DNA of 64,000 nt from Pseudomonadales bacterium (GCA_036960375.1 JBALVY010000001.1:576563-640562); one strand, 5' to 3'; positions 1,303 through 33,930 are shown, numbered from the stretch's first letter. Notes: generated by a model not told the origin, from the sequence alone. A program made the numbers and translations.

Positions 1303-2505
1303 TCATGCGTATCCGTCGATCAGTGTATCACCCGTTGGCACTTGCAGTAGCTTCTTACCTGCTAGCGCCATGCTGTTGTTGTAGTGAACAGATCCGTGGG
1401 TTGAGACAGTGCGGCAGTCGCGGAAGTGACGTTGTACCGGGTTGCGCCCTATCTGGCCGGTCACGCCCATCATGGCCGATAGATCGTGCACCGCGTCTCG
1501 GCATAGCCTAGCGACATAGGCCATCTGCTGACGCGAACGCAGGCGCTCGGTACCCTTGAGTTGCTCGTGTGCCATGCCGCGTTCATGCAGCATTGTACAT
1601 AGCTGGTCCGTCAGTAGTTCTGCCGTGGCAATGCGCACCTCGACCTCACCGACAGCGATCTGTACCGGCACCTGGTCGACAATGGTTTCACCGCGCATGG
1701 CGCCAACCCTGTCGATGGTTGAATCGAGATATTGCTCCAGGGCGCCGCGTGCTGTGCCCAGCAATGGGCCGGCCAGCAGGGTGCCAAAGTAGGAGGGCAT
1801 CTCGGTGTGGTAAATGTACTTGTCGTGGAGCTTGGACCCCGGAGGCTTCTGGCCGGAGAAGGATTTGTGATCGATAATCCGAGAGGCGGGAATGAACTGA
1901 TCCTTAACTACAACGTCATTGCTGCCGGTTCCTTTGAGTCCCTCGGCGACCCAGGTGTAGAGAATCTCGAACTCACCCGGCAGTAGCATAATATGGTGAG
2001 TAGGCATCCCCTTGTCCTTGGCTGACACCAGCACGCAGTCGGCGTGATCCACGCCACTGGCAAAACCCCACCTGCCGTTGGCAATGTAACCGCCATCTAC
2101 CGGTTCGAGCGAGCCACCACCGGCCGACGCCGTGGATATGATGGCATCCGGATGGTTCGGCCAGAATTCTTCCTGAGTCTCTGCGGGGAAGCGTGCCAGC
2201 ATCCAGGTGTGCGACAGCACGATGGAACTGATCCAGCCGGTTGATCCGCATCCGCGGGATATTTCGCGACTAACGTCTACGTGGGTGCCCCAATCCATCT
2301 CAAAGCCGCCGTAGCGACGTGGTGCGAATATTTTGTGCAATCCAGCCGCCTTCAGGTCTGCTATGGTTTCGTCTGGGATTTTACCCATGTCCTCGGTCGC
2401 GCTTGCACGTTCGCGCAATATTGGCACAAGGTTCTTGGCTGCAGTGACGAGTTCTTCTCGGCTTGGCACGTAACTAGGGGTTTGCTTCGATGCGCTTTTT
2501 AGCAT
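1303..2505 (-). CDS. Acyl-CoA-dehydrogenase-fold flavin-dependent monooxygenase, oxygenase component (HsaA / HpaH-C2 / DszC-like)
   Basis: 400 aa. RRYGGFEMDWGTHVDVSREISRGCGSTGWISSIVLSHTWMLARFPAETQEEFW and GRWGFASGVDHADCVLV are typical of group-D two-component monooxygenases rather than true ACADs. It lies 46 nt upstream of the MFS gene on the same strand. Confidence 0.8.
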   Translation of the reverse strand: MLKSASKQTPSYVPSREELVTAAKNLVPILRERASATEDMGKIPDETIADLKAAGLHKIFAPRRYGGFEMDWGTHVDVSREISRGCGSTGWISSIVLSHTWMLARFPAETQEEFWPNHPDAIISTASAGGGSLEPVDGGYIANGRWGFASGVDHADCVLVSAKDKGMPTHHIMLLPGEFEILYTWVAEGLKGTGSNDVVVKDQFIPASRIIDHKSFSGQKPPGSKLHDKYIYHTEMPSYFGTLLAGPLLGTARGALEQYLDSTIDRVGAMRGETIVDQVPVQIAVGEVEVRIATAELLTDQLCTMLHERGMAHEQLKGTERLRSRQQMAYVARLCRDAVHDLSAMMGVTGQIGRNPVQRHFRDCRTVSTHGSVHYNNSMALAGKKLLQVPTGDTLIDGYA

Positions 2506-2721: not shown

Positions 2722-5028
2722 ATGTCTGCCTTGCCTACGGCCGCGCCCCTGTCAGGGGTGAAAGTCCTTAACTGCGGAACGGCAGGTGTAGGCCCGTGGG
2801 CTGCATCACTGTTGGGTTTCCTGGGTGCCAGCGTGTTCAAGATTGAGCGTCCAGGCGGTGATTTCATCCGCCTGATGTACCCTCGTCGCAACGGTGTTGG
2901 TGCTGCCTATCCCGCTTTTAACGCTGGGCAGCGAGTGCTTACGCTGGACCTCAAGGATCCCGTCGACTGCGAGCGCTTTGATGAGCTGGTCCGTGACAGC
3001 GACGTGCTGATAGAAAATTTCCGGCCGGGCGTGGCAGAACGTCTGCACATGGGTTACGAGCGGGTGCGCGCGATAAACCCTGGAATCGTTTACGGCTCTA
3101 GTTCGGCCTGGGGTGACTCCGGACCAATGCGGGACCAGGCGGCCGTTGACCCACACCTGCAGGCCTTTAGCGGATTCGCAGCGCTTAATGGTGAGGTCGG
3201 TGGCCCCCCCGAAATGCTGCGCTCGGTCCATATCGATCCTAATGGCTCTGTATACCTTGCGGCTCTGCTCATACTCGGCTTGCTACAACGCAATCGCATT
3301 GGCACGGGTATGCGCTTGGGTACGTCCCATTTTGCGATGGCGTTAGCAATGCAAAGTACTCGCATCGCCGAATTGCTATCCCAGGATGATGTGCTGCCGC
3401 GCATGGGTAGTGCCTGTATCGCCAGTGCACCGAACCAGTGTGTGCGCACGGCCGACGGGCAGTACCTGGCGGTGACCGCTGAGAGCGATCACCAGTGGGC
3501 CGGATTGTGTCGAGCACTGCAGCGCCCCGATTGGTTACATGACGACCGTTTCGGCAGCAATACTGATCGCTGCCTAAACCGAGAGGTCCTGGCGCGCCTG
3601 CTGGAAGCTGAGTTCCTGCGGTTCCCGCAGCGCTGGTGGATATCGCGTCTGGAGCAGGAGAACGTGCCTCATAGCCGACTGCTCGATTACGACGACTTGC
3701 GCTTCCACCCACAGATACTTGATAACGCTTACCTGTCCACCCTCGATACTGAGGAGGGGGCGGTCGTGGTTGGGGGCTTGCCTTGGCATTTCAGTCGTAC
3801 GCCTGCCCGGCTCAGTACCGCGGGTGCAGACGAGTCGGTAGCGCAGGTGGCGGCGTCCGAGGTGTCCGCTGACCCTGAGGTCGCTCCTTTGCATGAGCTC
3901 ACCGTCATCGACGCCAGTGAAGGTTATAGCGGGCCACTACTAAGCCTGTTACTGGCCGACTCTGGGGCAACTGTTATCAAGGCGGAATTGCCCGCCGGAG
4001 ATTGGGCCCGGCATCTAGAGCCCGCAGATACAGCCGGTAGCAGCGCTCTTTTTGAAGCCCTTAATCGCAACAAGCGCGGGCTGCCGATCGCACCCGATAA
4101 AGCCAACAGTCGGACCGAGTTCGACTTACTGCTCGCAGTGGCTGATGTGCTGGTCTACGATGCCAACTCGCTGCTGGCTCAGCAGTGGGAATTGAGTGAA
4201 GCGGCACTGCGCGAACGTTACCCGCGGCTGGTGCTTGTTGAGCTCAGTGCCTACGGGCCACAAGGGCCGCTTGCGGCCAGTACCGGCAGTGAACTGACGG
4301 CGCAAGCGATGACCGGCTACCTGCGCAACCTCGGTCGTCCCGACGGTCCACCGGTGAGAGTGGGTGCGGATATTGCCACTACAGGCACTGCTGCCATGGC
4401 CCTGGTGGGCACGTTGGCCGCGCTGTATGAGCGTGAACGATCGGGCGCTGGCCAGCGGATTCAGTGCAGCTTGCTCGGGACCCTGATGTCCATGCGGAGC
4501 TTGCGCTGGGCTTCATTGGACCGTCCCGATGCCTGGCGGGGTACCGATTGCGGGGCTACCACGGACAACCCCTGGCTGGGCTACCAGACCCGGGATGGCT
4601 TTATCTGGCCCTCCCTCAGAACAGTTCGCGAGAACGCCGATCTGCAGTATCTGCTGGAGCAGCTCGGTGTACCGGAAGACATGCGCCTGGCAGCTGAAAT
4701 GAAGGAGATGCCGAGCGAGACTATCGGCCTCGGCTATCTGGCGCGTCAGTGGCAGGCGCGGTGGGATAGTGTTCTCGGTAAGCTCTCACGCGATGTCGTG
4801 TTGGCACAGTTTCACTCAGCCAGAGGCATTGCTGTTGAGTTCAGTGAACTGCACGAAATTGTCAGCCATCCCCAGACACAGACCCTTGGCATTTTTGAGC
4901 AGAGCGGTGGGCGGCGCTATATGCGCGCACCCTGGTCCGCGCCCTGGTCGCTGCCGCCGCTCCAGTTAGCGCCTACCCATCCAAAATGGGTCGGCATCGA
5001 TGTTAATTCAGAACACACAAAGGCCTAA
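2722..5028 (+). CDS. Double-domain class III (CaiB/BaiF) CoA-transferase, DddD-like architecture
   Basis: 768 aa. The N-half begins LSGVKVLNCGTAGVGPWAASLLGFLGASVFKIERPGGD. A second transferase half restarts near aa 392: LHELTVIDASEGYSGPLLSLLLADSGATVIKAELPAGD. Both halves keep an Asp at the expected catalytic position (HIDPNGS; VGADIATTGT). Paralog of 23200..25470. Confidence 0.85.
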   Translation: MSALPTAAPLSGVKVLNCGTAGVGPWAASLLGFLGASVFKIERPGGDFIRLMYPRRNGVGAAYPAFNAGQRVLTLDLKDPVDCERFDELVRDSDVLIENFRPGVAERLHMGYERVRAINPGIVYGSSSAWGDSGPMRDQAAVDPHLQAFSGFAALNGEVGGPPEMLRSVHIDPNGSVYLAALLILGLLQRNRIGTGMRLGTSHFAMALAMQSTRIAELLSQDDVLPRMGSACIASAPNQCVRTADGQYLAVTAESDHQWAGLCRALQRPDWLHDDRFGSNTDRCLNREVLARLLEAEFLRFPQRWWISRLEQENVPHSRLLDYDDLRFHPQILDNAYLSTLDTEEGAVVVGGLPWHFSRTPARLSTAGADESVAQVAASEVSADPEVAPLHELTVIDASEGYSGPLLSLLLADSGATVIKAELPAGDWARHLEPADTAGSSALFEALNRNKRGLPIAPDKANSRTEFDLLLAVADVLVYDANSLLAQQWELSEAALRERYPRLVLVELSAYGPQGPLAASTGSELTAQAMTGYLRNLGRPDGPPVRVGADIATTGTAAMALVGTLAALYERERSGAGQRIQCSLLGTLMSMRSLRWASLDRPDAWRGTDCGATTDNPWLGYQTRDGFIWPSLRTVRENADLQYLLEQLGVPEDMRLAAEMKEMPSETIGLGYLARQWQARWDSVLGKLSRDVVLAQFHSARGIAVEFSELHEIVSHPQTQTLGIFEQSGGRRYMRAPWSAPWSLPPLQLAPTHPKWVGIDVNSEHTKA

Positions 5029-5030
5029 CA

Positions 5031-6188
5031 GTGGATTTCAAATTACCTGAACAGACCCAAATGATTAAAGACACGGCGCGCCGCGTTGTGAATGAACACT
5101 TCATGCCGTTGGAGCAACAGCTGGCCGACCGGGAAAGTACCTATGAGGTCCCGCCTGAGGTCCATGCGAAACTCGCGACTACCCTCAAAGACTTGGGATT
5201 GTGGGCGCTGGAAGTGCCCGAGGAGCTAGGCGGTGCTGGTCTGGGTATCCTCGACCATTGTGCTGTCATGGAAGAAGCCTGGCGTTGCACCGCAGGCCGG
5301 CGCCTGTGGGTCTCGCTATTTTTTCCTGTTTTGAACCAGCTCGGCACCATCGATCAGAAAGAAAAATACCTGTATCCAAGTATCAGTGGTGCCATCCATG
5401 GGGCGTCGGCGTTTTCGGAGCCTGGCGCCGCCGGCGATCTGGCCGGAATCAGCACTACTGCCACGCAAGTGGCGGACGGCTGGCTGCTTAACGGTACCAA
5501 GTGTTGGATTACATACGCCGACACGGCTAGCTATGTATTGGTTCTGGCGCGCATGCCTGGTACTCGGCGTCACGACGGCATGACCTGGTTCGTGGTCGAC
5601 GCCAATTCGCCGGGTTTCGAGGTAACGCGTCGCCAGCAGATGATTCATGGCCACCCCACCTTTGAGCTGATGCTGAATGACTGCCTGCTGCCCCATGATG
5701 CTATTCTGGGCGAGCCCGGACAGGGTTTTGCCTCAGGTGCTAACGCCCTGTTCCGAGGTCGTATGACGATTTCAGCTCGCGCTCTGGGTAGCGCCGAGCG
5801 CTGCATGGAAATGATGGTCAGCTACGCCAACGAGCGCCATACTTTCGGCAAGCCCCTGGCCAGCCGGCAGGCGATCCAGTGGATGATTGCCGATTCTGCG
5901 CTAGAGTTACACAACCTGAGATCCATGCTGGTTCGCACCGCCTGGGATGCAGATCAGGGCAAGTCAATGCGAACCCAGACCGCTATGCTGAAACTGCAGG
6001 CTTCCGAAGTCGCTGGCCGCATCGCAGATCGAGCGGTGCAAATTCATGGTGCTGCAGGACTATCTACTGACATGGTGCTTGAGCGCATCTACCGAGATGT
6101 TCGTCCCATGCGTATCTACGAGGGGACATCCGAAGCGATGCGTAGCATGATCGCCAAGAATATTCTGGCGGGTGACCCATGGCAGTGA
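5031..6188 (+). CDS. Acyl-CoA dehydrogenase
   Basis: 385 aa. GTG start 2 nt after the upstream stop. Canonical ACAD layout with the C-terminal RIYEGTSEAMR catalytic-Glu motif. Confidence 0.9.
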   Translation: MDFKLPEQTQMIKDTARRVVNEHFMPLEQQLADRESTYEVPPEVHAKLATTLKDLGLWALEVPEELGGAGLGILDHCAVMEEAWRCTAGRRLWVSLFFPVLNQLGTIDQKEKYLYPSISGAIHGASAFSEPGAAGDLAGISTTATQVADGWLLNGTKCWITYADTASYVLVLARMPGTRRHDGMTWFVVDANSPGFEVTRRQQMIHGHPTFELMLNDCLLPHDAILGEPGQGFASGANALFRGRMTISARALGSAERCMEMMVSYANERHTFGKPLASRQAIQWMIADSALELHNLRSMLVRTAWDADQGKSMRTQTAMLKLQASEVAGRIADRAVQIHGAAGLSTDMVLERIYRDVRPMRIYEGTSEAMRSMIAKNILAGDPWQ

Positions 6189-7639
6189 ACGCGCAATCTA
6201 TCGCGGCGCAACTTTCCGCACTGCCACTGTCTATGACCATAGATGGTATTGCTGTCGCCGCCGCCAAACAGCTCGATGTTATTAACCCGTCTACTGCCAC
6301 GGTGCTTAGCACCGCGCCGGATGCCAGTCCTGCCGAGATCGACCTGGCGGTGGATGCCGCCGCTCGTGCTTATCCTGCCTGGTCCGGACTGCCGATGGCG
6401 ACCCGCCGGACCGCTATCATGGCGCTGGCCGATGCACTTGAGGCTAATCGCGATGAGCTTACGCTGATCAATTCGCTGGAGTGCGGTGCGCCACTGAAGG
6501 TGGCCCGCTCAGTGGATGTCGCAATTCGCTACCTCAGGACAATCGCCGCTTTCGAGTTGCCGGTAGAGATACTGCGAGAGGACGCTACCCAACGTATCGA
6601 ACTGATGCGGGTGTCACTAGGAGTCGTTGCAGCTATTACGCCCTGGAATGCCCCCCTAACCCTGGCAGCCGCAAAAATTGCCTCTGCGCTGCTTGTGGGC
6701 AACACTATGGTGTTGAAACCCTCGCCTTTCGCGCCGTTGGCGACCCTGCGGCTGGGACAATTGGCCAGTGAGATTTTCCCGGCTGGCGTGCTTAATGTGG
6801 TCAGCGGCGGCGCGGCGGCGGGGGAGTCGCTGACGGGTCACCCGGACGTTGCCAAAGTGTCTTTCACCGGTTCGGTAGAGGTTGGTAAGCACATTATGTC
6901 CGCCGCCAGCGGTGGGCTGAAGCGTCTTACCCTCGAGCTTGGAGGCAATGACGCCGCAATCGTCCTGTCCGATACCGATCCCGTGGTAGCGGCGGCGGGT
7001 ATCGCTCGCATCGCTTTCTCTAATTGCGGTCAGTTCTGCATGGCGATCAAGCGCGTCTACGTCGAGCGACCGGTGGCCGAGGCCCTGTGTGATGCCCTGG
7101 TCAGGGAAGTATCGGCGAAGCGACTGGGTTCGGCCCTCGATCCAGGCACCGATATCGGCCCGGTGCAAAATGAACAGCAGTACCTGCGTCTGCAGGCCCT
7201 GCTTGAGGACACAAAAGCAGCCGGTGGCCGGTTTCTACTGGGCGGCGGAATTGGCGAGGTTTCTACAGGAGGCGGCTATTACATTTCGCCCGCTATTGTG
7301 ACCGGTCTCGATGAAACCGCTGAACTGGTGGCCAATGAGCAGTTTGGTCCCGTGCTGCCGGTGCTGGTAGTGGACTCCGCTGAGGAAGCTCTGGCGCGGG
7401 CCAATGCGAGCCGGTTCGGGCTGGGTGGCTCCGTTTGGGGCGCTGATGTGGCAAGGGCCACCGCCCTGGCGAGGCAGATGCAAGTGGGCACTGCTTGGGT
7501 AAATCAGCACGGCGCTCTGGACGCGGCGGTACCCATGAACGGGTGCAAAGAATCGGGCCTGGGTATTGAATATGGCATTGATGGTTTAAAGGGCTACACC
7601 GCACCCCGGGTGGTCAATATTCTGAAAACTACGAGATAA
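6179..7639 (+). CDS. NAD(P)+-dependent aldehyde dehydrogenase
   Basis: 486 aa. ALDH motifs LELGGND and FSNCGQFCMA (catalytic Cys). The start overlaps the ACAD stop (ATGGCAGTGA). Confidence 0.9.
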   Translation: MAVNAQSIAAQLSALPLSMTIDGIAVAAAKQLDVINPSTATVLSTAPDASPAEIDLAVDAAARAYPAWSGLPMATRRTAIMALADALEANRDELTLINSLECGAPLKVARSVDVAIRYLRTIAAFELPVEILREDATQRIELMRVSLGVVAAITPWNAPLTLAAAKIASALLVGNTMVLKPSPFAPLATLRLGQLASEIFPAGVLNVVSGGAAAGESLTGHPDVAKVSFTGSVEVGKHIMSAASGGLKRLTLELGGNDAAIVLSDTDPVVAAAGIARIAFSNCGQFCMAIKRVYVERPVAEALCDALVREVSAKRLGSALDPGTDIGPVQNEQQYLRLQALLEDTKAAGGRFLLGGGIGEVSTGGGYYISPAIVTGLDETAELVANEQFGPVLPVLVVDSAEEALARANASRFGLGGSVWGADVARATALARQMQVGTAWVNQHGALDAAVPMNGCKESGLGIEYGIDGLKGYTAPRVVNILKTTR

Positions 7640-7659
7640 AAAACGAGGCAGAATTAACA

Positions 7660-8028
7660 ATGACGGCGACAAACACAGCAGCAACACAGCGGCGGGTGGT
7701 CAAGGACAAGCCTGCTCATTTTTTCGACAGCCCTGAGACGGACATCCTTATGTCTATGGTGCTGGCCCTGGCGGGTGAGCTTTCGGTAGTGCGCGAGCGA
7801 CTCGATACCCACGAAAGGTTGAGCCAGTCCCAGGGCGGTTTCGACCCGGATGCGGTTAATCGTTATAAGCCGGATGCCGAGGTTGTGGCGCAGCGCAGCG
7901 CTGCGCGTAATAAGTATCTGAAACGCGTTCTTAGGGAAGCGCTGAACGAGGTGAGTAGAGCCAGTGACACGGACCCGCTTCTGTCCGGTGAAGCGCTGGC
8001 CGACATACTGACAGGACAAGGAAAATGA
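7660..8028 (+). CDS. Small predicted alpha-helical protein S1, family not recognised; paralog of 10417..10740
   Basis: 122 aa. It aligns without gaps to S2 over about 78 residues, roughly one third identical, sharing V-x-R-[ED]-R-L-D-T-x-E-x-L and P-D-x-E...Y. Its stop overlaps the start of the downstream methyltransferase (ATGA at 8025-8028). Confidence 0.6.
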   Translation: MTATNTAATQRRVVKDKPAHFFDSPETDILMSMVLALAGELSVVRERLDTHERLSQSQGGFDPDAVNRYKPDAEVVAQRSAARNKYLKRVLREALNEVSRASDTDPLLSGEALADILTGQGK

Positions 8029-9218
8029 GCAAACACATAACACCCGAAAATTACACTGGCGGCTTTGAGGGTCACCCTATGCTGCCGCAAACCGACCATG
8101 ACGAGCACGCGCAACAGGCTTTTGTGCTCAGTCTAAAGCAGCTGGTCAATGGCGAATTACTGGCGGGCACCCGTCAGTTATGCGAGCGCAAAGCCCGGGA
8201 AGAGCTTGGGCTGGACAGCACTCCAGCGCCAGAGGCCAGACATGCAGTACGTAAAATGATGGCCGGCACGTCGAGCTACCGTATCTGGAGTTCGCTGCTG
8301 CGCAATTCGCAGGAGCTGCTGTGGGACTACGTGGGCGAAAGCGTGGATCGACAGTTGGATGAACTGAATACCCGCGCAAACAGTATAGAAACACCGCTTG
8401 GCTCGCTGCGGCTGAATCCGGATTTCATGCTGCCCGGCTATCTTGCGGCAGTTGATCAGCACATTATGCCAGGTGGCTATGGCGACAACCCGGCGGACGA
8501 TGATGTTCGCTCCGGCGCTGTGTATGACCGCGGTGCCGCCCTATACCACATGGGGCAAGTTAATCTGCTCAACGACGTCCGCGGGCATACGCTGGCCGCT
8601 TATTTGCAAGATGTCTACGGTGAGCTGAAGCCGCTGCGCATTCTCGATATGGGCTGTACAGTTGGGCACAGTACCCTGGTGCTGTGTGACTATTTTCCCG
8701 ATGCCGAGATCCACGCCATCGACGTGGGCCCATCACAGTTGCGTTATGCCCATGCCCGCGCCGAACATTTGGGCAAGACCGTGCATTTCTCACAGCAGTC
8801 AGCGGAGTCTACCGACTTCGAGTCAGGCAGCTTTGATCTTGTGGTGTCCAGTGCGATGTTCCACGAGACCTCAACTGCCGCAGTACCGCAGATCATGCGC
8901 GAATGCATGCGCCTTTTGCGCCCGGGTGGTATTTGCGCGCACGCCGAGGTGCCCGTGCGCTACGACCGGATGCCGGTAGCCGACGTACTCATAAGGGACT
9001 GGCAGACCTACCATAACGGTGAGCCTTTCTGGGGTGGATGCGCGACTACCGATTTCGGTGCGGCACTCGAAGATGCCAGTTTTGTCGACGTGCAAACCGG
9101 TTTCCAGCCGGCGACCCGCGACGCCACTGATCCGACCCGTGGCCACTTTAGTAGCGAGGGTGATGCCTCCTTTCGCTACTGGTATCTGTTCGGAGGTAAG
9201 AAACCCAGTGATGCATGA
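8025..9218 (+). CDS. Class I SAM-dependent methyltransferase MT1 with an N-terminal extension of about 190 aa
   Basis: 397 aa. Motif I is ILDMGCTVGHST and post-I is IHAIDVGP; LLRPGG is also present. The N-terminal extension is shared with MT2 (QAF, LLWD, PGGY, DDV-x-x-GA). Confidence 0.8.
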   Translation: MSKHITPENYTGGFEGHPMLPQTDHDEHAQQAFVLSLKQLVNGELLAGTRQLCERKAREELGLDSTPAPEARHAVRKMMAGTSSYRIWSSLLRNSQELLWDYVGESVDRQLDELNTRANSIETPLGSLRLNPDFMLPGYLAAVDQHIMPGGYGDNPADDDVRSGAVYDRGAALYHMGQVNLLNDVRGHTLAAYLQDVYGELKPLRILDMGCTVGHSTLVLCDYFPDAEIHAIDVGPSQLRYAHARAEHLGKTVHFSQQSAESTDFESGSFDLVVSSAMFHETSTAAVPQIMRECMRLLRPGGICAHAEVPVRYDRMPVADVLIRDWQTYHNGEPFWGGCATTDFGAALEDASFVDVQTGFQPATRDATDPTRGHFSSEGDASFRYWYLFGGKKPSDA

Positions 9219-9281
9219 TCCGGAAAAAATCGTTGATCTATATGAATCAATCCCATTAAGCAACCAAGAGGGAAAATCACA

Positions 9282-10415
9282 ATGAGTCAGGAAAATGCTA
9301 CGGCCATGCGGCCGACTCCCACTCATGACGAACAGTCGCGCCAGGCGTTTGACGGTCTGTTGCGCGCACACCTGCGCCAACACGTCTTGCCTGCGGTCAC
9401 TACATTATACGAGGAACGGGTGTTGCCAAAGTTCCGCAAGGAGCACGAGCGTGATCCGGCCACGAAAAGTGAAGTAGCCAAGGCGATGACCGCGGAGAAT
9501 TACTATCAGACCTGGAGTTACATGCAGCGTCTGAGCCAGCAATTATTGTGGGACTCGGTGATCGATTCGGTAGAGCGTTCCTTGCCGGAACTTATCGAGA
9601 GGGCAAAGGGCTTGACCGAGCTGGGGTCACTGACGCTCGACCCGGAGTTGGAAATACCGCGCTACCACACCTCCCATGACATTCATCAGCAGCCCGGTGG
9701 CTATCATTCCGAGTTCACCGAGGACGACGTCGCTGCGGGTGCGATATTTGATACCGGAGTGCCTATCTATTCGGGTGGTATCATGGGCGCAGCCAACGAT
9801 GTGCTCGGGCAAACTGTCGTCAGTTACTTCCGTGACACGTTTGCGCAACGCAAACCGTCCAAAATTCTCGATCTGGGTTGTGCGATAGGTAACTCTACCG
9901 TGCCCTGGGCTCAGGCATTCCCGGAGGCGGAAGTGCACGGTCTTGAAGTGGGTGCACCATGTTTGCGTTATGCGCATGCCCGGGCAAACGCGATGGGTGT
10001 GGAGGTGCATTTTCATCAGCAAAATGCCGAGTCCATGAACTTTCCCGATGAAAGCTTCGACCTGATCACCTCGTGTATTCTACTGCATGAAACATCGGTG
10101 CCCGCCCTGGCCAATATCCTGCGAGAATGCCACCGCCTGTTGAAGCCGGGAGGCATCATGATGCACCAGGATGGCTCGCTGACGTCATCCTGGGAGCCGC
10201 TGCGTGCATTCATGGCAGACTGGGAGGTAAGCAATAACAATGAGCCTTTTCTCGGCACCCTACGTAACCTTGATCTTCAGCAGGCCTATGTTGCGGCCGG
10301 ATTTGCGCTGGAAAAAATCAACTTCACTACAGCCCCGGTAGGCGGCAGCCAGCCCGCCCAGCGCGGTTATTTAAGTGGTTTTGGTGCAGTTCCGATCTAT
10401 TTGGCGGAGAAATAA
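9282..10415 (+). CDS. Class I SAM-dependent methyltransferase MT2, paralog of MT1
   Basis: 377 aa. Motif I is ILDLGCAIGNST; VHGLEVGAP and LLKPGG are also present. It has the same N-terminal extension as MT1. RBS GAGGGAAAA lies upstream. Confidence 0.8.
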   Translation: MSQENATAMRPTPTHDEQSRQAFDGLLRAHLRQHVLPAVTTLYEERVLPKFRKEHERDPATKSEVAKAMTAENYYQTWSYMQRLSQQLLWDSVIDSVERSLPELIERAKGLTELGSLTLDPELEIPRYHTSHDIHQQPGGYHSEFTEDDVAAGAIFDTGVPIYSGGIMGAANDVLGQTVVSYFRDTFAQRKPSKILDLGCAIGNSTVPWAQAFPEAEVHGLEVGAPCLRYAHARANAMGVEVHFHQQNAESMNFPDESFDLITSCILLHETSVPALANILRECHRLLKPGGIMMHQDGSLTSSWEPLRAFMADWEVSNNNEPFLGTLRNLDLQQAYVAAGFALEKINFTTAPVGGSQPAQRGYLSGFGAVPIYLAEK

Positions 10416-10416
10416 C

Positions 10417-10740
10417 ATGTCTGACACAGAAACAAAAGTAAAACTCGCTCGGGTAGCCCGAGGCAAACGCCCCGCGTATCTGGATGACAGGGCGATCGAT
10501 AACCTCTATGCCATTGTGGTCACCATGATGCAGGAAAATGTGGTGTTGCGGGACCGCTTAGATACACTGGAACTGCTGCTTGAGCGGCAGGGTGTTGTGT
10601 TACAGCAGCAAATAGAAACGTTCGTGCCAGACAAAGAGGCAGCCGACTCTCGCGAGCAGCGCAACAGGTCCTATATCGAGAAGTTGTTTCGCTGCCTGCA
10701 GGATGACCGCCAGCAGTTTGACGACAAGGTACAGGCATAA
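10417..10740 (+). CDS. Small predicted alpha-helical protein S2, paralog of S1
   Basis: 107 aa from ATG 10417 (MSDTETKVKLARV...), 1 nt after the MT2 stop (TAA c ATG). The track ORF 10375..10740 is an upstream extension into MT2. Confidence 0.6.
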   Translation: MSDTETKVKLARVARGKRPAYLDDRAIDNLYAIVVTMMQENVVLRDRLDTLELLLERQGVVLQQQIETFVPDKEAADSREQRNRSYIEKLFRCLQDDRQQFDDKVQA

Positions 10741-10759
10741 TGATTGTTCCGCAGGAGAT

Positions 10760-12265
10760 ATGCGTGTGAGTAAAAATGGCCTGAGCACGGAAACTCTTGC
10801 GTTTCTGCAAGGTCCCCGTAGCCTTCTTATTAATGGAGAGGCGGTGACAGGTAGCGGCGAGACCGTATCGATTGTTGACCCTTCGAGCGGAGAAGTCATC
10901 TGTGATTTCCCGTTGGCGTCAGCTGCGGATATCGACGCTGCGGTGACTGCAGCACGCAGTGCATTGACGCGGCCGAGCTGGTCCGGTATGTCAGGTTACG
11001 AGCGTGCGACATGCCTTTACCGACTGGCAGACCTGATAGAGGCTCATGCCGAGACCCTGGCGGAAATCGAGTCGCTGGATTTTGGCATGCCGATCCGGAT
11101 GAGCCGAGCGATGATGGCGAGCGTGCCGAGCAAGCATCTGCGTTACTGCGCTGGCTGGGCCACGCGCCTCGACGGCACTACCAAAAGCAGTTTCCCCGAT
11201 ACGCAAACCGGTGGCATCCACGGTTTTACGTTTCGAGAGCCGGTGGGGGTAGTGGGAGCTATAATTCCCTGGAATTCACCCATGGTTATGGCCATCATTA
11301 AGCTGGCTCCGGCCTTGGCTTGTGGCTGTACTATCGTGCTCAAACCCTCCGAGCTCACCCCGCTGACCGCCCAGTATCTCGGTGAGCTTGCGGCGGCAGC
11401 AGGGTTTCCGCCCGGCGTGATCAATATCGTACCGGGCCTTGGCTACGAAGCCGGGCAGGCGCTGGTCGATCACCCGCTACTGGCGAAGATAGCATTCACC
11501 GGTTCCAGTAATGCGGCCAGGGCTATTGTCGGATCTGTGGCTGAAAAGCTGACGCCTGTGGCGCTGGAACTGGGTGGTAAGGCTCCGGCCATTATCTGCG
11601 CCGACGCCAATCTGGACGCGGCGGCGCGCGTGGCAGCGGGCAGCTGTACCTCACTACAGGGGCAAAGCTGCGCAGCGATTACCCGTATTTATGTCGAGCG
11701 CGCGGTATACCCGCAGTTCCTGGAACGTCTCACTGCAAACCTGCAGGCGCTAAAAATAGGACCGGCGCTGGACGAAAGTAGCAGTCTCGGTCCACTGGTT
11801 TCCGCCTCCCAGTACCAGCGCGTGCAATCGTATATCGCTGCGGGTATTAGTGCAGGCGCCACGGCGCTTTCAGTCAGTTCGACACTGCCGGAGGGCGACG
11901 GTTTTTATATCGCACCGGTGATTTTCACCGACACCAAGCCCTCTATGTCGATAGTCTCTGATGAGATATTTGGGCCGGTGGTAGTGGTTGAGCCCTTCGA
12001 CTCGCTGGATGAGGCGATAGCCCTGGCGAACGATTCGCCCTATGGCCTGTTTGCCAGTGCCTGGACTGCCAGTATCGACAAGGCTCATTTTCTAATGAGG
12101 GTGCTGGATGTAGGTTACGTGGCCATCAATGGCTCGGGGGCGTTCGATGCCTCCATGCCCTTCGGCGGAGTCAAGCAATCCGGCTGGGGGCGCGAATTCG
12201 GCGAGGAGTCAGTGACTCACTACACCCGTATTAAGACGGTTGCTGTCACCTACGACGTCTCCTGA
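10760..12265 (+). CDS. NAD(P)+-dependent aldehyde dehydrogenase
   Basis: 501 aa from ATG 10760 (MRVSKNGLSTETLAFLQGPRSLLINGEAV), preceded by GGAG. Motifs LELGGKA and QGQSCAAITR. The track start at 10703 would overlap S2. Confidence 0.9.
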   Translation: MRVSKNGLSTETLAFLQGPRSLLINGEAVTGSGETVSIVDPSSGEVICDFPLASAADIDAAVTAARSALTRPSWSGMSGYERATCLYRLADLIEAHAETLAEIESLDFGMPIRMSRAMMASVPSKHLRYCAGWATRLDGTTKSSFPDTQTGGIHGFTFREPVGVVGAIIPWNSPMVMAIIKLAPALACGCTIVLKPSELTPLTAQYLGELAAAAGFPPGVINIVPGLGYEAGQALVDHPLLAKIAFTGSSNAARAIVGSVAEKLTPVALELGGKAPAIICADANLDAAARVAAGSCTSLQGQSCAAITRIYVERAVYPQFLERLTANLQALKIGPALDESSSLGPLVSASQYQRVQSYIAAGISAGATALSVSSTLPEGDGFYIAPVIFTDTKPSMSIVSDEIFGPVVVVEPFDSLDEAIALANDSPYGLFASAWTASIDKAHFLMRVLDVGYVAINGSGAFDASMPFGGVKQSGWGREFGEESVTHYTRIKTVAVTYDVS

Positions 12266-12345
12266 CCGCGATTTCATCCTGCCAGGCGGTAATCCGAGTC
12301 GCAGGCAGGTTCCCTTTCTGGAGAGATCGCTTTCTGTGCTGGGTA

Positions 12346-13632
12346 CTAGCCCGCCTGTTTTTCTTTGATAAACGCCAGGTTGGAGGATTCAACCTTTTCT
12401 ATCCAGCCGTCATACCTTTTCAGCGTTTGCGAAAACGGCTCTACCGATCCTGCCAGATAATCCAGCAGGTTGGCGGGTTTGAGTCCCGGTATAACGCTGC
12501 GCAGTGCCTCATTAATCCGGATTTTGGTTTCGTAGCGCTTGCGTAGCTTGGGCTCCAGCGGCATGGCGTAAATGCTGAGTCGCAGTAGCGCATGCATATC
12601 GGGAACCCGTGACGCGGTGTATGCTTCCAGGGCTTTGCCGCGGTCGCCCGAAAACTGTTTCAGCAGGCGCGCGATGATAACCGCGTCTTCCAGAGACGAG
12701 TTACACCCCTGACCGACGCTTGGCGGCACGGCATGGGCTGCGTCACCAAGTAGGCAGGCGTGGTTTTCAAAGTGGTAGCGGTCTAGCTTGATCGTGCGGC
12801 ACTGGAGGATTTTCCGTTCGAGGAAAGCCTTACGCTCATCCTCGGGGACAGCTGCGACCACTTCCGGGCAGCTTTTCTCCATCATCGACCACTGGTGACC
12901 GGCGTTGGTGGTTTCCTCGTTGCTGGCAGCGAATACCAGATTGCAGGTGGCCGTTCCGTTGGGATTTGGTATCGCGCCAACCATCAGGCCGCCGGGTAAC
13001 AGCCAGGCGTGCAACTCGTTGGGCCCTATAGACAGCTGGTCGCGACCATTCTTGTCGAGATAGAAATTTCGATATACCCGAGAGTAGGGTTTATCCTCAC
13101 AGGCGAAATCGGCGTCCCGCTCCAGCACTTGGCGCAGTCTGGAACCGGCCCCGTCGGCACCGAACAGAAGGTCATAGGCCTCGATCGTGTTTTGGCCCTG
13201 CATACTGAAATGAACCTCTTTTTGCTGCAGGTCCACATCGGTGCATTGTGCGCCAAAATGAATGTGGAAACGCTCGGAATTTAATTCCTCCAGCGAATCG
13301 AGCAAGCACTGTATCAACTCGTTGCGTTCACAGAGCCTAAATGGCTCCTTGACTTTGTTGCGCCGGACTGCCGGCGGCATCCAGTTGCGCATGCGCTCCT
13401 CGATCAGGACACAACGCCGGCTTACAGTCTCATCCAGACCGCTGATCTGCGCCAGGGCGTCAAAGCCACGCTTGAAAATAGCGAAGGAAAAACTCTTCTC
13501 GTTCTCCCTGTCCTGCAGTGCGTCGGCCCGTTCAAACACGTGAATGTCGCTGTTGGGTTCCGATTCGAGTAGTAGTCTGGCAAGCAGCAGACCGGCGGGG
13601 CCGGCTCCAAGAATGACAATTTTTTCGCGCAT
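12346..13632 (-). CDS. Group-A FAD-dependent monooxygenase (kynurenine-3-monooxygenase-like)
   Basis: 428 aa. N-terminal IVILGAGPAGLLLARLL dinucleotide fold. LLGDAAHAVPPSVGQGCNSSLEDA motif. Confidence 0.85.
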   Translation of the reverse strand: MREKIVILGAGPAGLLLARLLLESEPNSDIHVFERADALQDRENEKSFSFAIFKRGFDALAQISGLDETVSRRCVLIEERMRNWMPPAVRRNKVKEPFRLCERNELIQCLLDSLEELNSERFHIHFGAQCTDVDLQQKEVHFSMQGQNTIEAYDLLFGADGAGSRLRQVLERDADFACEDKPYSRVYRNFYLDKNGRDQLSIGPNELHAWLLPGGLMVGAIPNPNGTATCNLVFAASNEETTNAGHQWSMMEKSCPEVVAAVPEDERKAFLERKILQCRTIKLDRYHFENHACLLGDAAHAVPPSVGQGCNSSLEDAVIIARLLKQFSGDRGKALEAYTASRVPDMHALLRLSIYAMPLEPKLRKRYETKIRINEALRSVIPGLKPANLLDYLAGSVEPFSQTLKRYDGWIEKVESSNLAFIKEKQAG

Positions 13633-20726: not shown

Positions 20727-21545
20727 ATGACCAAGCTTTTGAATATTCGTTGCCTATACGCTTTGTGTTTGGCCAGTCTGCTGTCTCTGTCGCTGCCGGC
20801 GTTCAGCGCCAACCCGGAGCCGACTTCGGCTGCGGCGGCTCAGGGTGAAATTCTGGTGGTCGGTGCGTCCGGTCGCTCGGGGGTGTACATCATTAAGGCA
20901 CTCGAGCAGCAAGCGCGTGCTTTTCGGCCAATGACCAGCAATATCGAGCGGGCCAAGGGAAAGGTACCGGGCGATTACAATTGGGTGCAGGCCGATGTGC
21001 GTGACATGGCGACTTTGCAGGCTGCTATGGACGGAGTCACTTATGTGATTTCTGTCCTGGGTGCCACCAAGTTTGAAGGCCCAGACGGGCCTGAATTTGT
21101 GGACTGGCAAGGGACCAGAAATATAGTCGATGCGGCGAAAAAGGCCGGGGTGAAGCATATTGTGATCGTTTCTGCGGCGGGAGTATCGCAACCCAATAAC
21201 GCGATGAACAAGTACGGCAACGTAATGGTGTGGAAATTCAAGGGTGAGAACTACCTGCGAGCCGGCGGTATCCCTTACACCATCATTAGACCCGGTGGCC
21301 TCGAGAGCGAGGACAGCACGGGCAAGGGAATCGCCATGATGCAAGGTGATACGCTGCCTAATCACGGAGGCTTCAGTCGTGCCGACCTGGCCTCCATGTT
21401 GCTTGCTGCGGTGGGCAATCCCGACGCCTACCAGAAAACCTTTGAGCCAATTTACGAGGATGAGGCGGCTGCAGATGCTTGGCGCACCGAGTTTGGAGCG
21501 CTACTGACCGATGAGCAACTCAAGGCCAGCGCAGGCAATGAGTAG
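20727..21545 (+). CDS. Exported NAD(P)-binding Rossmann-fold protein (atypical SDR / NmrA-like)
   Basis: 272 aa. Sec-type signal MTKLLNIRCLYALCLASLLSLSLPAFS-AN, then ILVVGASGRSGVYIIKAL (GxxGxxG). Paralog of 27333..28190. Confidence 0.8.
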   Translation: MTKLLNIRCLYALCLASLLSLSLPAFSANPEPTSAAAAQGEILVVGASGRSGVYIIKALEQQARAFRPMTSNIERAKGKVPGDYNWVQADVRDMATLQAAMDGVTYVISVLGATKFEGPDGPEFVDWQGTRNIVDAAKKAGVKHIVIVSAAGVSQPNNAMNKYGNVMVWKFKGENYLRAGGIPYTIIRPGGLESEDSTGKGIAMMQGDTLPNHGGFSRADLASMLLAAVGNPDAYQKTFEPIYEDEAAADAWRTEFGALLTDEQLKASAGNE

Positions 21546-22230
21546 CGACAGCAATGATACGCTGAAGCGACGTCAGGCTCTGTCAATGGCGGCGGCCAGC
21601 ATTGCTGGCGCTGCACTGTTTCGCACTGGCATGGTATCTTCCCAGCCGGCGAGCGAGCCTTCGCGTCCCACCCCCGGAATGACTTCCAAGCTGAGCCCGG
21701 AAATTGAGGCGGCGAAGAAAAACGCCTTCATCATGATCCCCTACGGCATGTTTGTACTGGCGGTTACCGACGGCGAAAATATTTACGCTGGTGCTGTTAA
21801 CTGGGTGATGCAGAGCGCCTATGCTGAACCACTCTTCACCATGGGAGTGCGCCGCCCCGGCGGCTTTGGTTTCCCTTACAGTGACGAGGTCTACAAGACC
21901 CTGGTCAAAACAGGCAAGTTCAGTTTGTCGTTTCTCGGTGAAGACCAAACAAATATGGCCAGAGCGTTCATGTCAGCCGATACCGTGATCGATGGCAACA
22001 AGATCAACGGCTATGAATTCCACACTGCCATGACCGGCGCGCCTATCATCAATGAGGCACCAGCCTGGTTTGAGGCCGAGGTCAAGGATGAGGTGACGCC
22101 GGGTGACCATTCACTCTTTATTTGCTCTGTCATCAACGCAGGCAATACCACTGAGCAGCCATTGCTGATGGATCGCGACGCGACCCGTCGCCCGAAGAAC
22201 TGGCTCACCGGTGGTGCGGCCACTAAGTAG
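21538..22230 (+). CDS. Flavin-reductase-like (FMN-binding split-barrel) protein with a Tat-type signal
   Basis: 230 aa from ATG 21538, overlapping the upstream stop. N-terminus MSSDSNDTLKRRQALSMAAASIAGAALF carries a twin-Arg plus hydrophobic region. Core IPYGMFVLAVTDGENIYAGAVNWVMQSAYAEPLFTMGV resembles the flavin reductase domain. Confidence 0.7.
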   Translation: MSSDSNDTLKRRQALSMAAASIAGAALFRTGMVSSQPASEPSRPTPGMTSKLSPEIEAAKKNAFIMIPYGMFVLAVTDGENIYAGAVNWVMQSAYAEPLFTMGVRRPGGFGFPYSDEVYKTLVKTGKFSLSFLGEDQTNMARAFMSADTVIDGNKINGYEFHTAMTGAPIINEAPAWFEAEVKDEVTPGDHSLFICSVINAGNTTEQPLLMDRDATRRPKNWLTGGAATK

Positions 22231-22304: not shown

Positions 22305-23099
22305 ATGAGGAAGGCCTACGTCGATATCCCTCAGGGGCAGCTTCATTACCTGACAGAGGGCACCGGTATTCCGCTGGTACTTTGTCACCAGTCCCCCAAC
22401 TGTTCTCGCATGTTCACCGCTGCAATTCCTTTGCTTGCTGAGGCGGGCTTCAGGGTGCTGGCATTTGATACTCCCGGGCATGGGGAGTCCAGTCCGCTGC
22501 AGCACGAACCTTCGATTCCAGATTATGCGCGGGCGTTGCTGTCGGGCCTCGATGCGCTGGAGCTAGAACATTTTCATCTGCTGGGCCACCATACCGGCGC
22601 AGCGATAGCCGCAGAGATGGCCGTTAGCGCGGCGGGGCGGGTCGACTCGCTGATACTGAATGGCCCGCCATTGTTTTCACCGGATACACGCGCCCAGCGC
22701 CGCTTGAAGGATCCCCTGCGCATTGTGCCGACAGAGGGCGGGCAGCACTTGTTGACCTTGTGGGAGTTGCGCAAGCGGGTGACGCCTGGTTGGTCTGACC
22801 TGAGGGTGATGCAGCGTGCCGTTGTCGATCTGCTGCGCTGCGGCAACCGGGTTCATCAGGGACACGCGGCGGTATACGACTACGATCTTGAACAGGCGCT
22901 GATGCAGCTGAACGTTCCCACGCTGATTTTGACCAACACCGGGGAAGACCTGTACCAGCATTCCCTTGCGACTTTTGCCCTGCGCCCCGACGCCTTTAAG
23001 CTCTCAGAACTACCCGGTGGTACCCACGACATTGTCGATGAACAGCCGGTGGCCTGGTCACATGCAGTGGCCTCGTTCGTTGCGCAGGTGGTTGGCTGA
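22305..23099 (+). CDS. Alpha/beta-hydrolase-fold protein, paralog of 17071..17898
   Basis: 264 aa. It shows the same deviations as its paralog: LVLCHQSPNCS and LLGHHTGAAIA. A C-terminal GGTHD is present. Confidence 0.8.
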   Translation: MRKAYVDIPQGQLHYLTEGTGIPLVLCHQSPNCSRMFTAAIPLLAEAGFRVLAFDTPGHGESSPLQHEPSIPDYARALLSGLDALELEHFHLLGHHTGAAIAAEMAVSAAGRVDSLILNGPPLFSPDTRAQRRLKDPLRIVPTEGGQHLLTLWELRKRVTPGWSDLRVMQRAVVDLLRCGNRVHQGHAAVYDYDLEQALMQLNVPTLILTNTGEDLYQHSLATFALRPDAFKLSELPGGTHDIVDEQPVAWSHAVASFVAQVVG

Positions 23100-25470: not shown

Positions 25471-26468
25471 CAAGTGCAGACAACTCTACGCAAGGCGCCC
25501 CCGGGACATTTGATGCAATCAGCTTTCGCGACGCCCTGGGGCAGTTTGCCACCGGCGTAACGATAATAACCGCGGTCGATGCAGACGGCACGCCGGTGGG
25601 TGTTACCGCCAACAGTTTCAATTCTGCTTCCCTGGACCCGCCTCTGGTTCTGTGGAGCCTTGGGCGACGCTCGGGCACCCTTAGCGCGTTCACCCAGGCG
25701 GAATATTTTGCTGTGCACATTCTTTCGGCGGATCAGATCGAACTTTCCAATCGGTTTGCTGCCCCCCGCAGCGACAAATTCGAGGGAATTGAAACAACAG
25801 AAGGTCTTGGCGGCGTGCCCTTGCTCGATGGTTGTGCCGCTCGTTTCGAATGCAAAACCGCCTACCAGTACGAGGGTGGCGACCATATTATTTTTGTCGG
25901 CGAGGTGCAGCGCTTTGAAAAGGCAGATACTCCCACGCTGCTGTATCACCAGGGCAAGTATGCCTTGTCGCATGCGCAGCAGGCGGTAGCACCGGGCACG
26001 CCGGGTGGAGAGGGCGTCGATCCGCCCGGAGGGTTTGTCGACGACTATCTCGCCTACCTCTTAATTAATGCCTCCCGAAGCTTCCTGACCCGCTTCAAGG
26101 ACTGCATTCTCTCTTCCGGCCTGGACATCATTGGCTGGAGAACACTGGCGCATCTTACTGATCAGGACGGCAGGATGGGCAAAACCATGTTAAGCAAGGG
26201 AGTGGCAGAGGATGCCGAGAGCATGCTCGAAGCGCATCGCCGGCTCGAGTCGGAAGGCCTTATCCGCCGCGACGTAGAGCCGCTGGACGAAGAACTTGCA
26301 AGGCCGATACACCTGACCGACCTCGGCAGGGAAACGGTGATCCCCATACTGGCCGCGGCTAAATCGCTTGAATCAGACGCCCTTGGTGGTCTGGAAACAG
26401 ATGACGAGATTCAGATTCTGAAAAATTCGTTGCGCCAGGTGGCGTCGCGTATGGCAGATGAGAAATAG
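25467..26468 (+). CDS. Flavin reductase (HpaC-like) fused to a C-terminal MarR-type winged-helix domain
   Basis: 333 aa. The N-terminal ~165 aa (FRDALGQFATGVTIITAVDADGTPVGVTANSFNSASLDPPLVLWSL...GDHIIFVGEV) form a flavin reductase domain. After a Pro/Gly linker comes a MarR-like segment (IIGWRTLAHLTDQDGRMGKTMLSKGVAEDAESMLEAHRRLESEGLIRRD). The start overlaps the CoA-transferase stop (ATGA). Confidence 0.8.
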   Translation: MTSADNSTQGAPGTFDAISFRDALGQFATGVTIITAVDADGTPVGVTANSFNSASLDPPLVLWSLGRRSGTLSAFTQAEYFAVHILSADQIELSNRFAAPRSDKFEGIETTEGLGGVPLLDGCAARFECKTAYQYEGGDHIIFVGEVQRFEKADTPTLLYHQGKYALSHAQQAVAPGTPGGEGVDPPGGFVDDYLAYLLINASRSFLTRFKDCILSSGLDIIGWRTLAHLTDQDGRMGKTMLSKGVAEDAESMLEAHRRLESEGLIRRDVEPLDEELARPIHLTDLGRETVIPILAAAKSLESDALGGLETDDEIQILKNSLRQVASRMADEK

Positions 26469-33843: not shown

Positions 33844-33930
33844 TGGTGCCCAGGGGGAGACTCGAACTCCCACGACCATAAGGTCACTAGCACCTGAAGC
33901 TAGCGCGTCTACCAATTCCGCCACCTGGGC
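33844..33930 (-). tRNA. tRNA-Leu (anticodon CAG), 87 nt with long variable arm and encoded CCA
   Basis: Reverse complement: GCCCAGGTGGCGGAATTGGTAGACGCGCTAGCTTCAGGTGCTAGTGACCTTATGGTCGTGGGAGTTCGAGTCTCCCCCTGGGCACCA. Acceptor stem GCCCAGG/CCTGGGC. Anticodon stem CTAGC/GCTAG with loop TTCAGGT. T-arm GGGAG-TTCGAGT-CTCCC. Confidence 0.95.

Follow-up and report, generated by a model that had tools for sequence, protein, structure and literature searches.

Small helical proteins encoded next to N-terminally extended SAM methyltransferases in a Pseudomonadales operon and in many bacterial phyla

The class I S-adenosylmethionine (SAM) methyltransferases Trm9, Trm11, Mtq2, and Bud23 require the small non-catalytic protein Trm112 as a partner and activator (PMC5372719, PMC6144793). 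Here we describe a locus of a Pseudomonadales bacterium that may hold a comparable arrangement. It lies in a stretch of 64,000 nt (GCA_036960375.1, JBALVY010000001.1:576563-640562; the whole stretch is called "the window") and encodes two related small proteins, S1 and S2, and two related class I SAM methyltransferases, MT1 and MT2, with each small gene next to one methyltransferase gene. As with Trm112, one kind of small protein would serve several paralogous class I methyltransferases, the S-MT complex being predicted from the genes in this case. The differences are considerable. Trm112 has a zinc-knuckle/beta fold (COG2835) and binds methyltransferases of the translation apparatus through a beta-zipper, whereas S is predicted to be an all-alpha, acidic hairpin that resembles no solved structure, and its methyltransferases have a unique N-terminal hairpin and are found in metabolic operons. 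A zinc-knuckle fold of the Trm112/COG2835 type was considered for S and rejected, because S is predicted to be all-helical, 75 members gave no consistent Pfam hit, and no fold match was found in the PDB.

Four further systems invite comparison. BioC, a malonyl-ACP O-methyltransferase that works with the pimeloyl-ACP methyl ester esterase BioH, is a class I enzyme of the same Methyltransf_11/25 type, and alpha/beta hydrolases and acyl-thioester enzymes are present in the cluster studied here; however, BioC has neither the 190-aa N-terminal extension nor an S partner, and S-MT loci usually lack hydrolases. Tam, the trans-aconitate 2-methyltransferase, is a class I enzyme that methyl-esterifies a tricarboxylate, and several S-MT loci have TcuA-like and PrpB/PrpD-like neighbours, but its architecture is different and no partner protein is known for it. 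CheR also combines a class I methyltransferase with an extra N-terminal helical domain and acts on Glu residues in helical hairpins of chemoreceptors. In contrast, MT1 and MT2 have no match to the CheR family in Pfam, S is a free 100-aa protein and not a receptor domain, and there are no che genes nearby. UbiE works with the accessory factors UbiJ and UbiK, the latter a small coiled-coil protein. The methyltransferases of the window match the UbiE/COQ5-type Pfam family PF01209 with 35-46 bits, but S matches no UbiK family (it has no consistent Pfam match), and a quinone-biosynthesis context is missing.

Adjacency of S and methyltransferase genes

In the record of the metagenome-assembled genome (MAG), the window proteins are annotated as "hypothetical protein" and "class I SAM-dependent methyltransferase". 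An earlier note on this DNA had described two pairs of paralogs, and all of the genes and motifs it listed are present at the positions given there. S1 and S2 align without gaps, as claimed, with 27 of 92 residues identical (29%; E 9e-12), i.e. slightly less than the "about one third" of the earlier note. Both have the motifs V-x-R-[ED]-R-L-D-T-x-E-x-L and P-D-x-E...Y, and both match the family profile with E values of 1e-37 to 1e-38. MT1 and MT2 are 39% identical across 362 aa (E 9e-88), and this alignment includes the proposed shared N-terminal region of about 190 residues. The elements QAF, LLWD, PGGY, and DDV..GA are common to both proteins and are N-terminal to motif I, ILD[ML]GC[TA][VI]G[HN]ST, the first residue of which is 206 in MT1 and 195 in MT2.

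The tight coupling of each small gene to one methyltransferase gene is evident from the sequence. The S1 stop codon and the MT1 start codon are joined by an ATGA overlap (8025-8028), and the MT2/S2 junction reads TAA-c-ATG (10413-10419), so that S2 begins 1 nt past the MT2 stop codon. Ribosome-binding sites (GAGG/GGAG) are found upstream of S1 and of S2. A hidden Markov model (HMM) scan of the open reading frames (ORFs) of the 64-kb window revealed no S-like or MT-like ORF beyond these four.

The linkage was quantified from both sides. For S, one genome per GTDB species was scanned with the pattern R[ED]RLDT[HVL]ERL, which yielded 544 confirmed loci; the best 80 of them were counted, using HMM searches of six-frame ORFs. 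They stem from Binatia, Alpha- and Gammaproteobacteria, Cyanobacteria, Marinimicrobia, Anaerolineae, Actinomycetota, and Thermodesulfobacteriota. A gene for an N-terminally extended methyltransferase is directly adjacent to S at 58 of these 80 loci and is found elsewhere in the locus at three; 17 have no such gene despite room on both sides, and two are truncated. For MT, 80 loci on metagenome contigs were inspected, 72 of which could be assessed. S is directly adjacent at 64 (89% of the assessable loci) and is absent despite room on both sides at eight, while the other eight are truncated. The adjacency is thus kept in genomes other than that of the window.

The median gaps between S and MT genes are 15-44 nt. 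The order MT-S is the most common architecture, and S-MT, MT-MT-S, and divergent pairs also occur. At least 10 loci have the order S-MT-S, e.g. L006, in which one MT gene is located between genes for two different S types, and S-MT-MT-S is found in the window as well as in L001 and L122. The view that each S is coupled to one MT therefore holds for the pairs in the window, but not as a strict rule of one S per MT, as S-MT-S is common elsewhere. Overall, the S-MT pair behaves as a portable unit; the other neighbours are highly variable, and therefore the pair itself is what is conserved. A cultured carrier is Salinisphaera sp. PC39 (L031). One member of the MT family without S was observed in a Rhodospirillaceae MAG (L003, 11362-21158) at the edge of an integrase-bearing element, which also encodes a DNA methylase and ORC/CDC6-like genes.

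The two pairs in the window have opposite internal orders, which had been interpreted as a mirror-ordered duplicated module. MT1 belongs to MT clade 4, and this clade and its sister clade 3 invariably have S upstream. MT2 belongs to clade 12, in which S is downstream in every S-bearing member, one truncated locus showing none. Clustering of the S proteins gave a corresponding picture: S1 clusters with the S partners of the sister clade of MT1 and with S encoded upstream in Foliamicus-type S-MT pairs; S2 clusters with the S partners of the MT2 clade and with S encoded downstream in marine MT-S pairs (L089-L097); and the S proteins encoded upstream in S-MT-S modules make up a separate clade. Because the S clades and the MT clades both track gene order, a local inverted duplication is not indicated, and the mirror order is best explained by two old types of S/MT pairs located next to each other, both with the orientation that is usual for them. 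The reversed order itself was thus correctly described, whereas the local mirror duplication gives way to two old pair lineages, each with its own fixed order. It is also conceivable that the arrangement arose earlier, from an S-MT-S module whose MT gene was duplicated; L122 shows a recent MT duplication within a module of the S-MT-S type.

The two-way adjacency across phyla, its presence in all gene orders, the co-varying clades, and the start/stop overlaps together suggest that S and the MT clade form one functional unit. Our preferred explanation, which we put forward tentatively, is that S is a dedicated non-catalytic partner subunit of the N-terminally extended MT clade, i.e. that both proteins form a physical holoenzyme.

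The S family and the methyltransferase clade

An exhaustive HMMER search of 1.84 billion representative proteins with a profile of S1 and S2 retrieved 1177 representatives (50% identity) at E<=1e-3, of which 474 also reach E<=1e-10, and almost all of them are 90-130 aa long. A second search gave 2562 clusters at 90% identity, none of which contains a Pfam domain. Where the clusters are named, they are called "hypothetical protein", except for "phasin" and "IS5 family transposase", which are evidently transferred labels. A word-index protein search with S2 alone found S2 itself as the sole match. As single sequences, S1 and S2 have no significant match in Pfam, NCBIfam, or the PDB, the family profile gave nothing consistent in the PDB, and a Foldseek search of the PDB with the S model found no solved relative. 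The statement of the earlier note that the family could not be recognised has therefore stood up to searches at the level of sequence and fold. When 75 members were compared with Pfam (E<=1), 47 families matched any member, and none of the 25 listed matched more than four members. Over all of these sequence and fold searches, the best matches were insignificant, namely PspB (E 0.006, 4 of the 75 members) and a histone chain (E 7.9). A role as a phasin, i.e. a protein of polyhydroxyalkanoate granules, was rejected: no phasin family is among these 25 listed families, and the label "phasin" is attached to one of 120 clusters listed. A full-text search found no paper that describes S or the S-MT pairing, and neither a family model nor a solved structure was found.

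The AlphaFold2 (AF2) model of S1, based on an alignment of 40 sequences, is a helical hairpin with helices at residues 25-57 and 73-101. Its mean predicted local distance difference test score (pLDDT) is 78, with values of about 90 in the core, and residues 1-24 are disordered. Conservation was calculated for 167 members and is highest for E40 and R47 (100%), E52 and R79 (99%), and D28 and V43 (98%), followed by G16 and D49 (97%), P19 and R83 (95%), and R89 (93%). The consensus reads AKGKRPxFFxDPxIDKLL..M.AL.GEVSV.RDRLDT.ERLL. Its first part, the AKGKRPxFFxDP motif, falls into the disordered part of the monomer model, and residues 40-55 of helix 1 are conserved on every face, including charged positions. 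Because a conserved motif is disordered in the monomer and the conservation of helix 1 exceeds what a free two-helix hairpin would need, we infer that both form a partner interface that becomes ordered on binding. With a median pI of 5.5, the core of S is acidic, which weakens the idea that it is a DNA-binding regulator.

Lys/Ala/Pro-rich tails that resemble histone H1 were observed on about 19 of 165 S homologues, mostly at the N-terminus (e.g. L006 9131-9595, L122 6320-6763, and the proteins P0135, P0147, P0208, and P0270). They are lineage-specific and restricted to downstream-type and orphan S; none is present on upstream-type S, S1, or S2.

MT1 and MT2 are class I SAM methyltransferases according to Pfam (Methyltransf_25/11/31/12, E 1e-14 to 1e-23). 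Motif I reads ILDMGCTVG and ILDLGCAIG, respectively, followed by IHAIDVG and VHGLEVG, which provide the acidic residue that class I enzymes have after strand 2. Pfam sees only the C-terminal core; the Methyltransf_25 match in MT1 is limited to residues 206-302. With E<=1e-10 as the limit, more than 4000 relatives of MT2 were found, many of which are full-length (370-390 aa) and at least 50% identical. They come from metagenomes and MAGs of marine, freshwater, and soil habitats and, where named, are called generic methyltransferases or "UbiE", the JGI label "UbiE" being a generic transfer. Across 57 members, including MT1, 37 alignment columns are invariant; these comprise the SAM motif, HxQPGGYH in the extension, LHETS after strand 4, and WExxNNNExF. 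Both enzymes look catalytically competent, because the family invariants and the SAM motif are intact.

The AF2 model of MT2 (pLDDT 90, predicted TM-score 0.90) has an N-terminal hairpin (helices 15-55 and 73-110) followed by a Rossmann core of alternating beta and alpha elements. Foldseek matched it to many methyltransferases with a probability of 1.0, with a poor overall fit (TM-score <=0.45); the top structural matches of the core are phosphoethanolamine methyltransferases (PMTs), RebM, MitM, LahSB, NovO, and Rv2258c. An HMM of the N-terminal extension scores 204 bits in MT1 and 289 bits in MT2. No solved homologue was found for the N-terminal hairpin: profile and fold matches cover only the core, and none lies below profile position ~160. 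S is not a detached copy of this hairpin (hhalign probability 0.2%). Characterised families do not accommodate the two enzymes either. The scores for BioC (TIGR02072, cut-off 184.95 bits) are 56.0 for MT1 and 54.0 for MT2, confined to the core. Those for UbiE/MenG (TIGR01934, cut-off 158.35 bits) are 36.2 and 50.5, and the gene neighbours are catabolic. Tam models (PRK14103/PRK01683, cut-offs 320/297 bits) give 23-33 bits, and the scores for ArsM-type models are likewise far below the cut-off. Judged by their sequences, MT1 and MT2 belong to a separate clade within the class I SAM methyltransferases, which is characterised by a predicted N-terminal helical hairpin of about 190 aa.

In the proposed holoenzyme, S would bind its own MT via the N-terminal peptide AKGKRPxFFxDP and the conserved helix 1, and the clade-specific N-terminal hairpin of the MT would be the likely docking site. 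Binding might stabilise the MT, activate it, or set its specificity. In some lineages, one MT would be served by two types of S, whose genes flank the MT gene on its upstream and downstream sides. The window would then contain two such pairs from two old lineages, S1-MT1 and MT2-S2, each of them presumably translationally coupled.

Operon and genomic contexts

The four genes belong to a series of eight genes on the same strand that extends from a class III coenzyme A (CoA)-transferase gene to a second aldehyde dehydrogenase gene (Table 1). From 2722 to 12265, the intergenic spacing ranges from -10 to +63 nt: the acyl-CoA dehydrogenase gene starts after a gap of 2 nt, and its 3' end has an overlap of 10 nt with the start of ALDH-A. 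Terminator-like hairpins follow ALDH-B at 12340-12395, the next gene is convergent, and no excess of internal terminator-like sites was found between 2722 and 12265. Tight spacing, the lack of excess internal terminators, the hairpins after ALDH-B, and the convergent next gene indicate a single 8-gene operon, and its genes point to a role in CoA-dependent catabolism of organic acids and aldehydes.

Table 1. Operon genes of the window and features of S and MT
Feature	Position	Strand	Remarks
Double-domain class III (CaiB-type) CoA-transferase, 768 aa	2722..5028	+	Operon gene 1; Pfam CoA_transf_3, two stretches, E 1.8e-150
Acyl-CoA dehydrogenase (ACAD), 385 aa	5031..6188	+	Pfam Acyl-CoA_dh_N/M/1
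Aldehyde dehydrogenase A (ALDH-A), 486 aa	6179..7639	+	Pfam Aldedh, E 8e-135
S1, small protein, predicted helical hairpin, 122 aa, "upstream" S type	7660..8028	+	Family profile, AF2 model
S1 core motif VVRERLDTHERL, residues 43-54	7786..7821	+	Highest conservation within the family; source of the genome search pattern
MT1, N-terminally extended class I SAM methyltransferase, 397 aa	8025..9218	+	Pfam Methyltransf_25, E 2.6e-21
MT1 N-terminal extension, residues 1-205, MT-clade-specific	8025..8639	+	Alignable with that of MT2
MT2, N-terminally extended class I SAM methyltransferase, 377 aa	9282..10415	+	Pfam Methyltransf_25, E 4.3e-23
MT2 N-terminal extension, residues 1-194	9282..9863	+	N-terminal HMM, 289 bits
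S2, small protein, predicted helical, 107 aa from its ATG, "downstream" S type	10417..10740	+	Family HMM, E 1.5e-38
S2 core motif VLRDRLDTLELL, residues 43-54	10543..10578	+	Shared S core
Aldehyde dehydrogenase B (ALDH-B)	10760..12265	+	Last operon gene; Pfam Aldedh, E 2.2e-156

The best NCBIfam similarities of the CoA-transferase are to mesaconate, oxalate, and glutarate CoA-transferases, all below the cut-offs. ALDH-A and ALDH-B are 37% identical; an alternative start of the ALDH-B ORF is at 10703, and the start at 10760 is preceded by AGGAG. The TARA contig L001 retains the full order CoA-transferase, ACAD, ALDH, S, MT, MT, S, ALDH. The identities with the window orthologs are 58% for S1, 60% for S2, 77% for MT1, 73% for MT2, and 62-84% for the remaining genes.

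Neighbouring genes were counted at 165 loci. Short-chain dehydrogenases/reductases (18 loci) and a divergent protein similar to the vicinal oxygen chelate (VOC) family (17) are followed by class III CoA-transferases and alpha/beta hydrolases (14 each), isochorismatase-type hydrolases (13), ALDHs (12), TcuA-like flavoproteins and hydantoinase A/B (11 each, the latter mainly in Binatia), and PrpD-like proteins (8). One recurrent operon has an HMGL-like gene on the opposite strand, then CoA-transferase, isochorismatase, VOC-like protein, S, MT, and S; another has a VOC-like gene on the opposite strand, then S, MT, TcuA-like protein, and alpha/beta hydrolase. In a marine alphaproteobacterial super-module (L076, L116, L155, L107, and L113), two to three MT genes and three S genes are interleaved with genes for a salicylate-hydroxylase-like FAD monooxygenase, PrpD-like and PrpB-like proteins, a thioesterase, and an HsaA-like protein. 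Other S-MT pairs are found among housekeeping genes (FtsK, HemN, glutathione peroxidase). The theme of the contexts, where there is one, appears to be CoA-dependent catabolism of di-/tricarboxylic and aromatic acids. Two narrower links were dropped, i.e. one to nicotinate/NAD salvage (isochorismatase and CinA-like neighbours), because the CinA match is marginal (23 bits), and one to the creatinine pathway (hydantoinase A/B with an isochorismatase-type amidase), because these neighbours are lineage-restricted.

A conserved protein of about 300 aa is encoded directly 5' of many S-MT modules (L006 6732-7622 and 16 other loci; alignment A6). It has marginal similarity to the glyoxalase/VOC family (Pfam 23 bits, PDB profile E 0.02) and represents an essentially unannotated family. 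Orphan S genes without an MT gene within 6 kb were seen in L019, L022, L030, L044, L053, L064, and L067 (around position 6000) and in L015, L024, L025, and L037. Orphans were observed in two conserved contexts. S either comes after an ABC exporter, with a divergent AsnC regulator opposite it, or it bears a tail and is located between amidase/GMC-oxidoreductase genes and ACAD/CoA-transferase genes. Several genomes with an orphan S have an S-MT pair elsewhere.

Over its first ~28 kb, the window resembles a single large catabolic island, which has a TonB receptor, a transporter of the major facilitator superfamily, and an IclR regulator. The island includes an HsaA-like flavin monooxygenase gene at 1303-2505 (-) and a second double-domain class III CoA-transferase gene at 23200-25470 (756 aa). 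Near the latter are flavin reductases (21511-22230 and 25467-26468), an alpha/beta hydrolase (22305-23099), and an NmrA-like protein (20727-21545). A 265-aa ORF at 26519-27316 (-) has a weak PCMT-type methyltransferase match (26.7 bits) and is the third MT-like gene of the island; no S-like ORF lies alongside it. The G+C content falls from 0.55-0.60 to 0.45-0.51 across about 30000-62000, and the origin of this part may differ. It contains tRNA-Leu(CAG) at 33844-33930 (-) and a multicopper oxidase gene at 30842-32779.

Weighing the possible roles of S

Several observations weigh against a role of S as a dedicated subunit. About 11% of the assessable MT loci have no adjacent S, and about 22% of the S loci, including the two conserved orphan contexts, have no MT within 6 kb, so S may also act independently of MT. 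S evolves at a higher rate than the MTs, as is seen from ortholog identities of 58-60% versus 73-77% between the window and L001 operons. A natural S-MT fusion was not found; the sole candidate, P0206 (364 aa), consists of an MT C-terminus, an out-of-frame Arg-rich filler, and a complete S, i.e. it is a frameshift read-through. The Lys/Ala/Pro-rich tails are unexplained by a simple subunit role. Lastly, the methyl acceptor is a guess from gene context alone: the MTs most likely methylate a small molecule, and the recurring neighbours for CoA-dependent acid catabolism make an organic-acid-type metabolite the best guess.

Among the alternatives, the one that fares best is that S is itself the methyl acceptor, which we consider unlikely but worth keeping in mind. 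By analogy with CheR, the MT would methylate the Lys/Arg residues of AKGKRP or the invariant Glu/Arg residues of the hairpin, and S would be a switched regulator or adaptor. The adjacency alone does not separate an enzyme and its substrate from an enzyme and its subunit. The conserved Lys/Arg-rich N-terminal motif is disordered, the invariant residues E40, E52, R47, and R79 could be modification sites, and the occurrence of several S paralogues per genome, as well as of orphan S in genomes with S-MT pairs, would fit one enzyme with several substrates. In contrast, the MT core is nearest to small-molecule methyltransferases (PMT, RebM, MitM, BioC/UbiE-like), no CheR or protein-methyltransferase family model is significant beyond generic core matches, and the pair is embedded in catabolic operons. 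In addition, two S types at fixed positions around one MT are more easily read as subunits.

A looser partnership is somewhat less probable still. S and MT would act in the same process without a stable holoenzyme, and S would serve in localisation, in regulation, or as a chaperone, e.g. as a tether that uses its basic tail to reach a membrane or polyanion, or as a factor in expression control. The histone-H1-like tails would suit such a role, as would the MTs without adjacent S and the orphan S genes near the ABC exporter and AsnC regulator or near amidase/CoA-transferase genes. However, the tails are confined to certain lineages and do not occur on S1, S2, or any upstream-type S, the acidic core has no recognisable DNA-binding fold, and the start/stop overlaps and co-varying clades imply a coupling closer than co-regulation.

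The earlier note had proposed a chemistry specific to the operon, i.e. a methyl-ester cycle of protection and deprotection as in BioC/BioH, with the alpha/beta hydrolases as esterases, or sulfonium/ammonium handling linked to DddD-like CoA-transferases; neither proposal found specific support, and we now regard this chemistry as improbable. The window does encode two double-domain CoA-transferases and three alpha/beta hydrolases, together with an ACAD and two ALDHs. BioC ranks among the top NCBIfam matches, albeit below threshold, and elsewhere the recurrent neighbours are proteins for di- and tricarboxylates, namely TcuA-like, PrpB/PrpD-like, and HMGL-like proteins as well as CoA-transferases of the mesaconate/glutarate type, which makes carboxyl O-methylation plausible. 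But the scores are far from the cut-offs (BioC 54-56 versus 185 bits, Tam 29-33 versus 320 bits), the CoA-transferase and the alpha/beta hydrolase are each present at only 14 of the 165 loci, and pairs also occur in housekeeping contexts. Concerning onium chemistry, no gene specific for dimethylsulfoniopropionate, betaine, or carnitine was identified and nothing ties the MT to it; the 768-aa gene was confirmed only as a two-domain CoA_transf_3 protein, with model libraries that include no DddD model.

A selfish or toxin-antitoxin-like cassette of an enzyme and a small neutralising protein would account for a two-gene unit with variable order and context and with several copies and orphans per genome, but it is highly improbable, since PADLOC gave no defence or toxin-antitoxin assignment (only a generic MT-core match, mad2, and an insignificant match of S1, E 0.009), no S homologue was found in 2.9 million viral contigs, the MTs are at least 50% identical across phyla, and the pair is stable inside conserved catabolic operons. 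To our knowledge, there is no toxin family of SAM methyltransferases.

Small partner proteins of methyltransferases are already a known kind, and the S-MT pair would be a new, unrelated, and very widespread variant. We hold with moderate confidence that S represents a new family, unrelated to Trm112, of obligate helical-hairpin subunits of a widespread MT clade, with a heteromeric pair of upstream and downstream S in some lineages; S would help to form the active or substrate site, or it would itself be a methyl-accepting switch.

The recognition of the S-MT pair provides a name and a testable hypothesis for thousands of orphan genes (at 90% identity, S has more than 2500 clusters and MT more than 4000), which occur in bacteria of many phyla from the sea, freshwater, and soil, and it corrects misleading "UbiE" labels. 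The pair possibly represents a new way to build or regulate a small-molecule methyltransferase. As it recurs in operons for organic-acid and aromatic catabolism of uncultured marine heterotrophs, knowledge of the acceptor could uncover a methylation step that has been missing from the picture of how dissolved organic matter is turned over.

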